From the NCBI GenBank assembly GCA_965242965.1, contig OZ251518.1, positions 4,992,001 through 5,056,000 of the forward strand: DNA of 64,000 bases, given 5' to 3'. Positions 60,059 through 62,689 of the stretch are shown in pieces. This stretch comes from Candidatus Poribacteria bacterium (GTDB lineage Bacteria > Poribacteria > WGA-4E > WGA-3G). The notes beneath the pieces were generated by a model. That model was not told the DNA's origin, searched no databases, and saw only the letters and a program-made list of their open reading frames with translations. Position 1 is the stretch's first letter. Each line of letters begins with the position of its first letter. The position numbers and the translations under genes were made by a program.

Positions 60059-62488
60059 TCAAAATTCCACTGTCAGTCCGAGATACGGGATGATGGGAAA
60101 TTGCCCTACCTCTTCCACGCTGCCATCCTCAGGATTCGTAAATCGCATGACATTTCGCCGATTATAGGCGTTCAAAATTTCCAGGAACCCGCCTATCTTC
60201 CAACCGTCGAAATCCCATTTTTTGCTTATCCGCACATCCAACCGATGGTAGGATGGCAGCGCAATTAAGTCGTCATCTTCAGTTTCAAAGGGTAGTTTGC
60301 GCATCCCGCGCGTAACCGGATCTTGGATTAAGAAGATATCGGCGATTGGAACGTCGGATGTGCCGCTGGAATACTGCCACTTCGCCCCTATATCAAACGT
60401 CGGCGAGAAATTGTAACTCGCCACGATGCTGACGACGCTGGTGTTGTCAAAGAGGTAGGGTTGATACTCGGCTTCGGGATGCGCTCGGCGTTCCGCGTGT
60501 GTCCACGCATACGAAATCCAGCCGAAAAATTTATCGGTGATACGGTGCCGCAGGAACATCTCCGCGCCACCGACATACCCCACACCCTGATTGAGATACC
60601 CTTCGGCTTCATCCGGCGTTACCAAATCTGCCTGCGTTTTGTAATACCCCGCCAACTTAAGTTCGGTTTGAGAGGTGAGCTCCTGCTCCAATTCCACGAT
60701 GTAGTGGCTGGTGACGCTTGAGGTTAACGCCGGATTTCCGTCTTCCGCAAGCATTTCATTCGGTTTCGGGCTCTGTTCATACCGTCCGTAAGCGAGACGC
60801 AGGTCTGCACCACTCGGCATTTTGATGGCAAGACTGGCGCGCGGCTGCACCGAGATTTCGTCTGTTATGTTGAGGTAATCTAGCCGAACGCCCAGTGCCG
60901 CCGATAGAAATGAAGACGGTTCATATCGCGTTTGGAGGTAACCTTCGGCACGGCGAAACTGTTTGTTGAATTCGTCGCGAGTTTCCTCGGTCCGCGTCTC
61001 CTGTAAAAAAGTCCCTTCGCTGCCATCGGGTTCGTTCCTGAAGACAACTGCCTCGTCTCCATCCGCCCGAGCCTCTTCAAGCAATTCTCCCAGGTCTTCG
61101 CCTTCTGGCACTTCCGTTTCCTCGGTGACTGGCAGATTGGTGTAAGAAAAACTTGTCGCGGGGCTGATGGAAAAAAGAAACCCCGGTTCAAACTGAAGCG
61201 TCGGTGTGATTTTATATGACACGTCTTCGCGCAGCGTGTAAACGGGAACGTTCACTTGAATGTCATAGTGCGAATACTCAGTGGACTCCACTTCCCACTC
61301 ACCGTCTGGGCCCCGTGCAAAAGTCTCGTCTGTCACCAGATCGAAGTCAACGTTGAGAAAATTGTGGGAACGCGTGAGAGAGAGGTGTGAGGTAAGCTCT
61401 TCCGTGAAATGCGAACGGAGATGTATCCCTTGTGCCTCAAACCCGTTTTTGAAATAGGCAGAAGAAGACGAGCCTTCAACGCCTTCGGGGGTTGAAAGCG
61501 TGGTTTCAGAGTCTGCATCCGCTGCGATGATGTCAAATTCAAAATGATCGGCGGCACCAAAGGCGTTGAGCGTCAGGTGATGCTTCTCCGCCACGTCGTG
61601 GGCATATTTGAATTGGTAATCTGAAAAGTAGGGCCACACGTTATTTCCCTCTATGAACTGACCGGCCACGAGGTCAAGGTAACTCCGCCGTCCAGAGAGA
61701 TAAACATATCCCTTCTCGCCGATTTGTCCTTCCAACAGCCCCTCCGAATAGAGGATATTGAGGTTGAAAGTGCCGCTGAATGTCTCGTCTTCCAATTTAT
61801 CCCGCGACCGGATGTCAATCACCGTTTGCGCATCCAACCCGAATTCCGCGCCGTAGCCGCCGGCGTAGATGTGGATGTCGTCAATAATTTCGGAACTGAT
61901 AGTTGAGACAATTCCGCCGTAGTGGAACGGATATCCCATTGGTGTCCGATCGAAATAGATGAGATTGTCGCCCGGCGCGCTCCCACGGATATAGAGCGAG
62001 CCAACAAAATCGTTTGGAATGCCGATGCTCGGCAGCGTCATGAGGCCCTTAAGCGCATCGCCACCGGTGCCGGGAAGACGTAGCAACTCACTGCCCCGAA
62101 TCTCCTGCCGACTCACGGTAGGTGGCACGCGCGCGCCTTCAATGATAACCTTCTCAAGTTCAAAGATTTCGCCGAGGTAGACTTTCACTTGTGTTGTATC
62201 GCCCACCCGCACCTCCAGCGTGACTTCCTTTGCCTCGGTATAGGTAGGATGCGAGATGGATAACGTGTAAGTTCCGGGTGCAACCTCGGTGAACCAAAAC
62301 GTCCCATCTTCGTCGGAGGTTTGGTGTTCGTCGGTTTCAAGCAGATGCACATCGGCATCGGCTAACGGCGCGCCGGTAATTTGTTCAGCGACGGTGCCTT
62401 GAATTGTCCCGGTTGCGGCGGGTTCGGATTGGGCAAAAACGGCTACTGGCACTGTGAGAACCAGCAGCAGCCAAAAAAAATGTTTCAC
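60059..62488 (-). CDS. TonB-dependent receptor with an N-terminal carboxypeptidase-regulatory-like domain
   Basis: Signal peptide, GTIQGTV, plug YIRGSAPGDN, GRRSYLD, YHRLDVR, NAYNRRN, C-terminal Phe; GTG start with RBS AAGGAG. Confidence 0.93.
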   Translation of the reverse strand: MKHFFWLLLVLTVPVAVFAQSEPAATGTIQGTVAEQITGAPLADADVHLLETDEHQTSDEDGTFWFTEVAPGTYTLSISHPTYTEAKEVTLEVRVGDTTQVKVYLGEIFELEKVIIEGARVPPTVSRQEIRGSELLRLPGTGGDALKGLMTLPSIGIPNDFVGSLYIRGSAPGDNLIYFDRTPMGYPFHYGGIVSTISSEIIDDIHIYAGGYGAEFGLDAQTVIDIRSRDKLEDETFSGTFNLNILYSEGLLEGQIGEKGYVYLSGRRSYLDLVAGQFIEGNNVWPYFSDYQFKYAHDVAEKHHLTLNAFGAADHFEFDIIAADADSETTLSTPEGVEGSSSSAYFKNGFEAQGIHLRSHFTEELTSHLSLTRSHNFLNVDFDLVTDETFARGPDGEWEVESTEYSHYDIQVNVPVYTLREDVSYKITPTLQFEPGFLFSISPATSFSYTNLPVTEETEVPEGEDLGELLEEARADGDEAVVFRNEPDGSEGTFLQETRTEETRDEFNKQFRRAEGYLQTRYEPSSFLSAALGVRLDYLNITDEISVQPRASLAIKMPSGADLRLAYGRYEQSPKPNEMLAEDGNPALTSSVTSHYIVELEQELTSQTELKLAGYYKTQADLVTPDEAEGYLNQGVGYVGGAEMFLRHRITDKFFGWISYAWTHAERRAHPEAEYQPYLFDNTSVVSIVASYNFSPTFDIGAKWQYSSGTSDVPIADIFLIQDPVTRGMRKLPFETEDDDLIALPSYHRLDVRISKKWDFDGWKIGGFLEILNAYNRRNVMRFTNPEDGSVEEVGQFPIIPYLGLTVEF

Positions 62489-62511
62489 AATGAGTTCTCC
62501 TTGTGATGAGG

Positions 62512-62604
62512 TTAACAGTTGGAAAGCACGGGGGGGGTCTTCAGGCCGGTGGGTTTCATGCGGACAGCAAAGCCCGCGAAGAGGAAAGCGAATGGGATTT
62601 TCAT
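62512..62604 (-). CDS. Leader ORF (30 aa) MKIPFAFLFAGFAVRMKPTGLKTPPVLSNC with a C8 tract
   Basis: Strong RBS AAAGGAG; G8 at 62530-62537 on the + strand. Confidence 0.6.
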   Translation of the reverse strand: MKIPFAFLFAGFAVRMKPTGLKTPPVLSNC

Positions 62605-62660
62605 TGGTTTGTCTCCTTTAAATTGACGTAAAGATGAAATCGGAATTAAACGTTGGATAT

Positions 62661-62689
62661 ATTATACTATTTTTTCGCGTTTTTGTCAA
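62661..62689 (-). promoter_or_regulatory. Sigma70 promoter for the leader and TBDR
   Basis: Perfect TTGACA-17-TATAAT. Confidence 0.82.

Follow-up and report, generated by a model that had tools for sequence, protein, structure and literature searches.

A poly-C tract in a repeated 5' cassette of Candidatus Poribacteria: a candidate frame-switching contingency locus upstream of a TonB-dependent receptor gene

Phase variation of TonB-dependent receptors, of signal-peptide tracts and of methylases is a textbook phenomenon in Neisseria, Haemophilus, Campylobacter and Helicobacter. Examples of such contingency loci are the poly-G tracts of the Neisseria TonB-dependent receptor genes hmbR and hpuA and of the signal-peptide region of pilC, as well as the poly-G genes of Campylobacter jejuni. 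Variable surface-protein families can carry a repeat as their switch, as do the opa genes of Neisseria (CTCTT, in the signal-peptide region) and the vlp genes of Mycoplasma hyorhinis (poly-A, in the promoter), and tracts in promoters underlie the phase variation of Bordetella fim and of Neisseria opc and porA. Sites of programmed -1 frameshifting or transcriptional slippage are known from dnaX and from insertion sequence (IS) elements. Poribacteria are abundant, uncultivated symbionts of sponges that persist in a filter-feeding, phagocytic and phage-rich host. Here we analyze a 64,000-nt stretch of a Candidatus Poribacteria genome (contig OZ251518.1; hereafter the window), and in particular a run of eight C residues (C8) that is located in a short leader open reading frame (ORF) immediately upstream of a gene for a TonB-dependent receptor. 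We put at somewhat under 60% the probability that this C8 tract serves as the switch of a conserved 5' cassette, and that the locus is a homopolymer contingency locus in which phase variation would operate through the reading frame of the leader.

The initial annotation of the window, which was made from the letters of the sequence, could match the poly-C leader to no described system. Its architecture is, however, that of the homopolymer (simple-sequence-repeat) contingency loci of host-adapted bacteria, as these are described in excerpts of PMC8437040, PMC3315296 and PMC13532347, and we consider it probable, on the basis of sequence, that the locus belongs to this class. As in those loci, a G/C run of at least eight lies at the 5' end of a frame, where a change of +/-1 nt would decide whether a surface protein is produced; there is a genome-wide excess of such runs, the runs are associated with receptor, surface-protein and restriction-modification genes, and in-frame and out-of-frame loci occur side by side. 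Unlike the tracts of those loci, the Poribacteria tract is part of a conserved and repeated cassette with GTTAA at a fixed distance of 13 nt downstream, and many of the copies lie in a separate leader ORF 200-650 nt upstream of a gene that is led by its own Shine-Dalgarno (SD) sequence. (Note that the Poribacteria loci are known as sequences and that their switching is a prediction.)

The features of the locus, which lies on the minus strand, are listed in Table 1, together with those of related loci; coordinates are positions in the window unless a contig is named. The initial annotation had proposed a promoter, an SD sequence, a 30-aa leader, a C8 run and a gap of 23 nt between the leader stop and the receptor GTG, and all of these are indeed present at the minus-strand positions assigned to them. 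A consensus scan of positions 59800-63000 indicates that the full match of the promoter to the sigma-70 consensus is unique within that interval, and the promoter is conserved in 13 cassette copies and in the same-genus genome G001. The leader ends five codons beyond the codons that make up the tract. The gene downstream is a TonB-dependent receptor as assigned from Pfam domains, with a plug and a barrel domain predicted behind a signal peptide (the matches being CarboxypepD_reg at the N-terminus, 3.6e-16, Plug, 4.8e-05, and TonB_dep_Rec_b-barrel, 1.4e-12), and orthologs of it are present in G001 (90% identity) and in a further genome of the same genus, G002 (89%). The RNA of the leader has a folding z-score of -0.36 with no helix after the tract, no intrinsic terminators were found in 59800-63000, and a search of the whole window at the Rfam gathering thresholds gave 0 matches to known RNA families. 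A T8 run in the signal-peptide codons of the receptor, to which the initial annotation had also drawn attention, is present as described; it is not conserved, since it is interrupted in other samples (A>G at 62474) and is a T5 in the G001 ortholog.

Table 1. Positions of the poly-C leader locus and of related features
Feature	Position	Strand	Remarks
Predicted promoter, sigma-70-type, TTGACA-17-TATAAT	62661..62689 (-35 62684-62689; -10 62661-62666)	minus	12/12 match
Leader SD, AAAGGAG	62613..62619	minus	8 nt 5' of ATG; kept in cassette alignment
Leader ORF, 30 codons, MKIPFAFLFAGFAVRMKPTGLKTPPVLSNC	62512..62604 (ATG 62602-62604)	minus	ORF list
Poly-C tract C8 (G8 on + strand)	62530..62537	minus	codons 24-26, aCC CCC CCC, Thr-Pro-Pro
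GTTAAC	62511..62516	minus	13 nt past tract; its TAA, 62512-62514, is the leader stop
Receptor SD, AAGGAG	62497..62502	minus	equivalent SD and start in G001 and G002 orthologs
TonB-dependent receptor gene, 809 aa, signal peptide MKHFFWLLLVLTVPVAVFAQ	60059..62488 (GTG start 62486-62488)	minus	Pfam
T8 run in receptor signal-peptide codons	62473..62480	minus	real, not conserved, probably irrelevant
AATCCTG-like short tandem repeats, periods 9 and 12	62702..62761	minus	Tandem Repeats Finder
Second cassette of the window	17612..17866	minus	TTGACA 17861-17866, 17 nt, TATACT 17838-17843
Second cassette, leader ORF, 56 aa, SD-led	17613-17783	minus	ends at TAA within GTTAAC 17612-17617
Second cassette, tract C9 (G9 on + strand)	17627-17635	minus	reads att aCC CCC CCC C
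Eight LTD paralogs behind E-type cassettes	G000:C1 1117342, 1622255, 3449642, 3921206, 4428800, 4262524, 2589646, 1502832		
Eight methylase genes with G/C tracts	G000:C1 2101457, 2540469, 2542105, 2841489, 3319143, 3590607, 471799, 473397		

Because the tract lies in phase inside the leader, its length would set which of three frames ribosomes follow, and a change of +/-1 nt at this position alters the relation of the leader frame to that of the receptor. With C8, the 30-aa leader peptide would end at the TAA of GTTAAC and the receptor would be left to its own SD. The initial annotation had claimed that C9 fuses the leader to the receptor and that C7 carries the leader frame over the receptor SD and start, and frame arithmetic on the unaltered sequence agrees on both counts. 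With one C more, the leader is continuous with the receptor in a frame of 848 aa, which would give rise to an N-terminally extended precursor such as that encoded by the G001 ortholog. With one C fewer, the frame continues for 142 nt beyond the tract, out of the receptor frame and across its SD and GTG, where ribosomes should interfere with initiation. The driver of length change is most likely slipped-strand mispairing during replication, which would make the phase variation heritable and reversible; with eight residues the tract has the length (about 7-8) at which slippage of G/C runs is taken to become frequent. Since the receptor gene has kept its own SD and GTG, the receptor may be modulated rather than gated. 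We infer that tract length changes at a useful rate in populations, as well as the translation of the leader and the size of the effect on the receptor. The cassette as a whole would consist of a strong sigma-70 promoter, an SD, a leader ORF, A-C(7-12), about 13 nt and GTTAAC, and it appears to have been placed by this Poribacteria lineage before many surface-protein genes and some restriction-modification genes.

The host genome (G000; 5.70 Mb in 2 contigs, 54% G+C) contains an excess of long G/C runs. Runs of lengths 5 to 12 number 8652, 584, 106, 78, 29, 7, 3 and 1, respectively, so that the fall from one length to the next is 15-fold between 5 and 6 and 5.5-fold at the following step, but no more than 1.36-fold between 7 and 8. 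Sorted by the similarity of their flanks, the 118 runs of at least eight comprise 33 in REP-like palindromic repeats, families B, C and D with 16, 10 and 6 members, and further pairs, triplets and singletons. The claim of the initial annotation that poly-C tracts stand before surface genes does not extend to all of them, given the 33 of 118 in the REP-like repeats and the 8 that lie in or before methylase genes. (The REP-like repeats, with units such as CGTAGCGCGGGGGCCTGTCCCCCGCGA, are dense at 62950-63630 of the window and occur genome-wide; many hold a C8 between two arms, aaaaacg-C8-tcaccgtagggcgaggg, and represent a second, non-leader class of poly-C.) The proportion of G/C runs at which a change of +/-1 nt yields an ORF of at least 300 aa is 9/584 (1.5%) at length 6, 10/106 (9.4%) at length 7, 14/78 (18%) at length 8 and 11/40 (27.5%) at lengths of 9 or more. 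For A/T runs of lengths 6, 7, 8 and 9 or more the proportion is flat, at 3.3-5.3% (126/3766, 48/1322, 16/447 and 4/76). That frame breaks are specific to G/C runs, with A/T runs being spared, argues against a generic homopolymer error of assembly. We rejected an assembly artefact on this ground and because contigs from two other studies carry the C8; the 20 motif copies in a 210-contig metagenome-assembled genome (MAG) of the same genus disfavour it further.

Counting both strands, the genome has 224 C-runs of at least seven, and GTTAA is found at +13 from 31 of these and at +14 from 12, where the +14 cases are C7T, which amounts to a C8 that has been interrupted. The equivalent windows upstream of the 224 runs, which served as a control, hold 4 GTTAA at scattered offsets. 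At the 56 loci where a run of seven or more C's has GTTAA at +8 to +16, the base before the run is A in 50, and an SD-led start with a frame open into the tract is present in 52; tract lengths across the family range from C7 to C12. Of the 52 leaders, 37 stop at the TAA in GTTAA; another 6 follow the frame that an additional C would give (+1C), and the remaining 9 the frame that results from losing one C (-1C). Relative to the TAA of GTTAA, the median open length is 390 nt in the +1C frame versus 34 nt in the -1C frame, and fusion with the downstream ORF occurs in the +1C frame at 16 of the 56 loci versus 1 of the 56 in the -1C frame; at C1:906659, exceptionally, the fused frame is -1C. These lengths and counts indicate that two of the frames are closed fast, one of them by the conserved TAA, and that one is kept open. 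In family B, [A/C]C8 with its N13 spacer is kept in 13 of the 16 copies. Many copies carry a hairpin, tcctgc-N8-gcagga, after GTTAAC, which the target lacks.

Both leaders of the window read ACC CCC CCC, as the initial annotation had noted, and theirs are the only two G/C runs of at least seven in the window (G9 at 17627-17635 and G8 at 62530-62537). On this basis it had proposed a lineage-wide 'TPP poly-C leader' system. The lineage-wide family is real, in that the motif A-C7-N11-16-GTTAA, to which both leaders belong, occurs 48 times in the host genome and 0-1 times in each of 16 genomes of three sister families. Thr-Pro-Pro is not, however, a conserved peptide feature: the G001 copies read gaC CCC CC, that is, Asp-Pro-Pro, and what is conserved is the nucleotide context A-C(n). 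A Thr-Pro-Pro stalling peptide was set aside as well, given the Asp-Pro-Pro of G001 in another phase and a leader pN/pS of 0.77 versus 0.93 and 0.90 in the other frames.

The target belongs to a group of closely similar cassettes, which we refer to as E-type. Its promoter, 5' untranslated region (UTR), SD and first 20 leader codons are 78-87% identical to 12 other sites in the genome, and alignment with the 12 paralogous leaders indicates that the target leader is an internally shortened copy of an E-type leader of about 52 codons (consensus MRILFS.IFAGIAVRLKPTVTALLQHPLQRFRA.A..GD...TPP.IYAR-stop). The 13 E-type tracts are C7T in five cases, C6T in one, C8 in four (the target included), C10 in one and gC7 in two; cassettes that are otherwise near-identical differ in length, with C8 at 4262524 and C10 at 2589646. 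Eight E-type copies precede paralogs of about 1480 aa that carry a lamin-tail (LTD) domain. These paralogs exemplify what we call class I genes, which lack both an SD and an ATG of their own. Going upstream, the first stop in their frame lies about 20 nt before the tract, such that they can start only from the ATG of the leader and in the +1C frame. A single member of the eight reads in frame from its leader (C1:4262524, with C8 and a 10-nt spacer, 1562 aa from the leader ATG), and the five intact 1482-aa paralogs share an interrupted C7T tract and the stop-at-TAA state. P0002 (1530 aa), a database protein of a different assembly, has the leader peptide at its N-terminus and continues through KTPPLH into an LTD-type protein. 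The median identity within the LTD family is 93.6% over the cassette of about 387 nt (promoter to end of the signal peptide), 69.6% over the next 600 nt and 76.4% over the remainder; such a gradient, judged from these alignments, is typical of families of variable surface proteins that have an expression cassette in common. Like families of the opa and vlp type, the LTD family has a conserved cassette (387 nt, in eight paralogs), a divergent start of the mature protein and one member of eight in frame. What sets it apart from those families is the place of the C-run, which lies in a long N-terminal region with a hydrophobic segment on either side, the lamin-tail domains of its proteins, and the use of the cassette by unrelated genes as well.

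Indeed, cassettes of the same type as that of the LTD genes precede the receptor, lipoprotein-like proteins and an AhpC/TSA protein. The enrichment before secreted genes for which the initial annotation had suggested a genome-wide scan is found: a strongly hydrophobic N-terminus is predicted for 39 of 51 downstream ORFs, compared with 681 of 2371 (29%) ORFs of at least 300 aa genome-wide, in what is a crude hydropathy test with non-independent paralogs and with start-codon miscalls among the 12 misses. By Pfam, lamin-tail domains are found in proteins of 1100-1500 aa in families C and E; single cassette-borne proteins combine LRR, fn3, Big_1 and LTD domains or, in a protein of 2184 aa, fn3, cadherin and LTD domains; and TPR matches occur in family-B genes, AhpC/TSA in a protein of 474 aa, along with a weak match to dockerin.

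Eight genes with the Pfam combination N6_N4_Mtase + Mrr_cat, a methylase-endonuclease fusion, have G/C tracts in the ORF or just before it. In six copies, those of family D, a G8 or G9 some 290 nt from the start of the ORF breaks the frame in the middle of a domain; loss of one residue would restore the copies with 8, and gain of one those with 9. The pair at C1:471799/473397 is preceded by a leader of 10 codons that ends TPP-stop. (That family D might be an IS element that uses programmed frameshifting was considered and rejected on the basis of the N6_N4_Mtase and Mrr_cat matches.) Phase-variable DNA methyltransferases of restriction-modification systems are known as phasevarions, according to excerpts of PMC5909438 and PMC7383803. 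Like phasevarions, the eight Poribacteria genes have G/C runs in or before the ORF, with the frame broken in the six mid-ORF copies; unlike them, they are methylase-endonuclease fusions with many paralogs rather than Type III mod or Type I hsdS genes.

Other cassettes, which we refer to as class II, are located 200-700 nt upstream of an SD-led gene. At 30 such loci the stretch between cassette and gene contains 52 stops in the +1C frame, 74 in the TAA frame and 102 in the -1C frame, and in 10 of the 30 there is no stop in the +1C frame. Whether ribosomes stop at GTTAA or read on through a leader of 200-650 nt could decide polarity at class II loci, in a manner akin to attenuation by upstream ORFs and Rho. 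In the reviewed portion of PMC12360218 the phase-variable cases of this kind depend on inversion of a DNA element (E. coli fim, C. difficile flgB); the Poribacteria element, unlike these, is a homopolymer in an upstream ORF, and the stop-codon statistics give the idea moderate support.

We also determined how the motif A-C7-N11-16-GTTAA is distributed in related genomes. In addition to the 48 copies in the host genome, there are 20 and 22 in two genomes of the same genus and 11, 25, 4, 4 and 5 in five genomes of other genera of the family, with 0-3 in the remaining family members searched; a reversed pattern used as a control gave counts of 0-4. In several members of the family whose genomes are complete in a single contig there is at most one copy, which argues that the count does not simply follow the type of assembly. 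Loci in the genomes G004 and G009 have the same build of promoter, start, leader, tract, about 13 nt, GTTAA and downstream SD-led gene, the last of these 130-620 nt away in those 13 of the 14 loci that had a downstream ORF called, and in both genomes the sequence reads GTTAAG followed directly by TATAAT-like letters. Of five near-identical G004 cassettes four have C9 and one has C8; in the C8 copy the leader extends a further 424 nt, to a point 21 nt short of the ATG of a secreted protein, so that in this family the long frame is reached with one C fewer. Some G009 cassettes precede what look like methylase- or restriction-like genes, as judged by eye from translations and with no Pfam confirmation. 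Tract length also differs within the other genomes: G001 has two near-identical cassettes with C7 (stopping at TAA) versus C8 (fused), and one leader family of G002 has C8, C9 and C10 in two copies each.

For the receptor itself, the G001 ortholog has a cassette with only C5 that is open in frame from the leader ATG through the receptor (SYPEDPRALRPLRTEDTPGEVLMRHFF), such that the leader-receptor fusion is kept open over 75 codons. The G002 ortholog has no cassette, and another gene ends just upstream of the receptor SD. Since G002 has the SD and start of the receptor without the cassette, the receptor's own SD and start are ancestral and the cassette was added in front of them. (Receptor orthologs of other genera, without a poly-C cassette, at the loci L004-L007, L011, L013 and L016-L018 have an upstream ECF-sigma-like motif, GTCAAC/GTAAAC-N16-17-CGTT, and at L012 an ECF-sigma-like gene ends just upstream of the ortholog.) Contigs of the runs X4 and X6, from two other sample sets, bridge the target tract and show C8 with the leader ORF intact and no indel in the ORF; over 330-560 nt they differ from the window by 10-17 substitutions, as befits strains diverged by about 3%, and by two indels, both in the 5' UTR. 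Because independently assembled contigs of diverged strains show the same length, C8 is not a slip of assembly. Note that all 21 runs listed are represented by contigs, none recorded as RNA, and that contigs hide minority tract lengths; in run X10 there is no cover of 62520-62570, its contigs ending at 62493 and 62502, and run X1 consists of short pieces only. Pattern scans of JGI metagenomes with the flanks of the target and with those of family B returned 0 stretches each.

Phase variation is favoured by the excess of runs, the G/C-specific breaks of frame, the coexistence of different frame states and lengths, and the classes of gene concerned. Several observations weigh on the other side. 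Polymorphism of the tract within a population, the defining property of phase variation, is something that we infer, and C8 is the consensus in the window and in both of the other sample sets, from strains about 3% diverged. The constancy of the target and of family B (13/16) would also fit a site of programmed, non-heritable slippage. That all five intact 1482-aa paralogs are C7T and stop at the TAA is odd for genes that switch independently, although homogenisation of the cassette, at 93.6% identity, could explain their shared state. The receptor's own SD and GTG, together with the ortholog in G002 that lacks a leader, imply that the cassette is dispensable for the expression of this particular gene. 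The pN/pS of the leader gives no clear sign of constraint at the level of the protein. For class II cassettes, the existence of a long upstream ORF that reaches the SD-led gene has moderate support. Finally, the distance of GTTAA from the tract is the same in different families and genera, a strictness beyond what a stop codon alone would require and one that a frame-switch model leaves unexplained.

The main rival is programmed recoding, which we keep as such because tract length and state are constant in copies and samples. According to this rather improbable explanation, the C-run is a slippage site for RNA polymerase or the ribosome, the DNA stays C8, and a fixed fraction of transcripts or ribosomes would enter the long or fused frame. 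The constancy of length and phase (C8 in three sample sets, 13/16 in family B, and the five C7T paralogs) is what such a site would show, and the tract has the anatomy of one: the overlap of about 45 nt between leader and main frame is centred on it, the 0-frame stop lies 5 codons downstream as at known shift sites, the in-phase C CCC CCC is formally an X XXY YYZ slippery heptamer, and 8-9 C's correspond to about the length of the RNA-DNA hybrid of RNA polymerase. The sites of dnaX and IS elements share the heptamer phase, the short two-frame overlap and the nearby 0-frame stop; they differ in that the Poribacteria tracts have no uniform direction, no nearby structure at the target and a run that is all G:C, and heptamers consisting entirely of G:C are generally poor -1 shift sites. 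The direction required is one C fewer in the G004 family and at C1:906659, and either -1 or +1 in methylases with 8 or 9 residues, respectively. Among paralogs each of the three frame states is represented (37, 6 and 9 loci), with lengths of 7-12 between near-identical flanks. The hairpin after GTTAAC in many copies could act as a stimulator, but it begins about 20 nt past the tract rather than at the usual 5-9 nt, and the target, with a z-score of -0.36, has neither this hairpin nor another stimulatory structure. About as improbable is the idea that the cassette at the target is an inert relic, a shortened copy that landed before a complete receptor gene which is expressed from its own SD and GTG regardless. 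The leader is some 22 codons shorter than those of the family and its RNA lacks structure, the receptor gene is complete with SD and GTG, and in G002 the ortholog does without a cassette, with another gene ending just upstream. A relic would hardly be expected, however, to retain promoter, SD, ATG, frame, C8 and TAA intact in strains about 3% diverged, with the two indels confined to the 5' UTR; the +1C frame is exactly that of the receptor, G001 keeps the fusion open over 75 codons, and there is no other promoter-like site between the cassette and the receptor gene.

The strict spacing of GTTAA bears on two further proposals. It is very unlikely, in our view, that the C-run and GTTAA(C/G) belong to a second promoter, dependent on an alternative sigma factor or an activator, with tract length tuning transcription. 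Such a promoter would account for the fixed distance, for the conserved A before the tract and for the invariance of GTTAA across families and genera, and it would fit the TATAAT-like letters right after GTTAAG in G004 and G009 and the ECF-like GTCAAC-N16/17-CGTT of distant receptor orthologs, the second element of which resembles CGTTAA; at the target, the distance of about 25 nt from GTTAAC to the receptor GTG would leave room for a short 5' UTR with the SD in it. Yet the consensus scan finds no promoter-like pair of hexamers flanking the target tract, and no -35-like element upstream of the tract is conserved across families, only the final A being common. Neither does a promoter predict that tracts lie in phase in SD-led ORFs, that 37/52 leaders stop at the TAA or that 16/56 loci fuse in the +1C frame; fused ORFs exist, and class I genes, with no SD or start after GTTAAC, need the leader ATG. 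The other proposal, a bolder one that we advance tentatively and regard as unlikely, is that A-C(n)-N13-GTTAAC is a dedicated, possibly mobile frame-switch cassette, specific to one Poribacteria family, that gates about 50 host-interaction and restriction-modification genes from an upstream ORF, with GTTAA being itself a signal. GTTAA would then be, for example, a boundary of the cassette, a recombination site or a signal that couples leader termination to polarity. If this were true, such a dedicated cassette, combining slippage of RNA polymerase or of replication with Rho polarity or translational coupling, would be an undescribed type of phase switch in an upstream ORF.

What is new relative to the described contingency loci is the lineage, the scale, a conserved cassette that is modular and includes GTTAA, the fact that many copies use a leader ORF separate from the gene, and the 'eukaryote-like' surface cargo. 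Among the papers listed in our literature searches on Poribacteria and sponge symbionts, none dealt with phase variation, homopolymers or contingency loci in these organisms. With about 85 tracts outside REP-like repeats, the genome appears to have among the largest homopolymer-switch sets of any bacterium, and these tracts precede genes thought to mediate contact with the host (encoding LRR, TPR, cadherin, fibronectin-III and lamin-tail proteins) and that for an outer-membrane receptor, and they occur in eight methylase genes. Should the tracts switch, a population of symbionts would be a mosaic of surface and methylation states, with a bearing on how it escapes phages and recognition by the host. 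In MAGs, short ORFs and many 'pseudogenes' would then be genes in the off state, which would affect how genomes of such organisms are annotated.

The second cassette of the window is located about 250 nt upstream of the gene for a secreted LTD/fn3 protein of 1153 aa (13917-17378). In the vicinity of the target, the AATCCTG-like repeats lie directly upstream of the -35 element and also precede paralogous cassettes and the G001 ortholog (L002); they may constitute a regulator-binding array, and in G015 an analogous AATCCGCGT array lies upstream of the receptor ortholog (L013). Two tandem repeats, one of 24 nt x 2.0 (100% match) and the other of 18 nt x 2.4 (96%), lie within positions 62844-62932, in the interval that separates the cassette from the REP-like block. 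C-rich stretches of low complexity occur in G002, with arrays of C8-C12 separated by single A's at G002:C1:3588005-3588122 and more than 40 C's with one G at G002:C4:7758-7802; these may be assembly ends or another type of repeat. On the other side of the receptor gene, an ORF of 164 aa without a Pfam match (59568-60062, minus strand) overlaps the receptor stop by 4 nt and may be co-translated with the receptor. Beyond it are a 790-aa Peptidase_S49 protein and then a PCMT methyltransferase.

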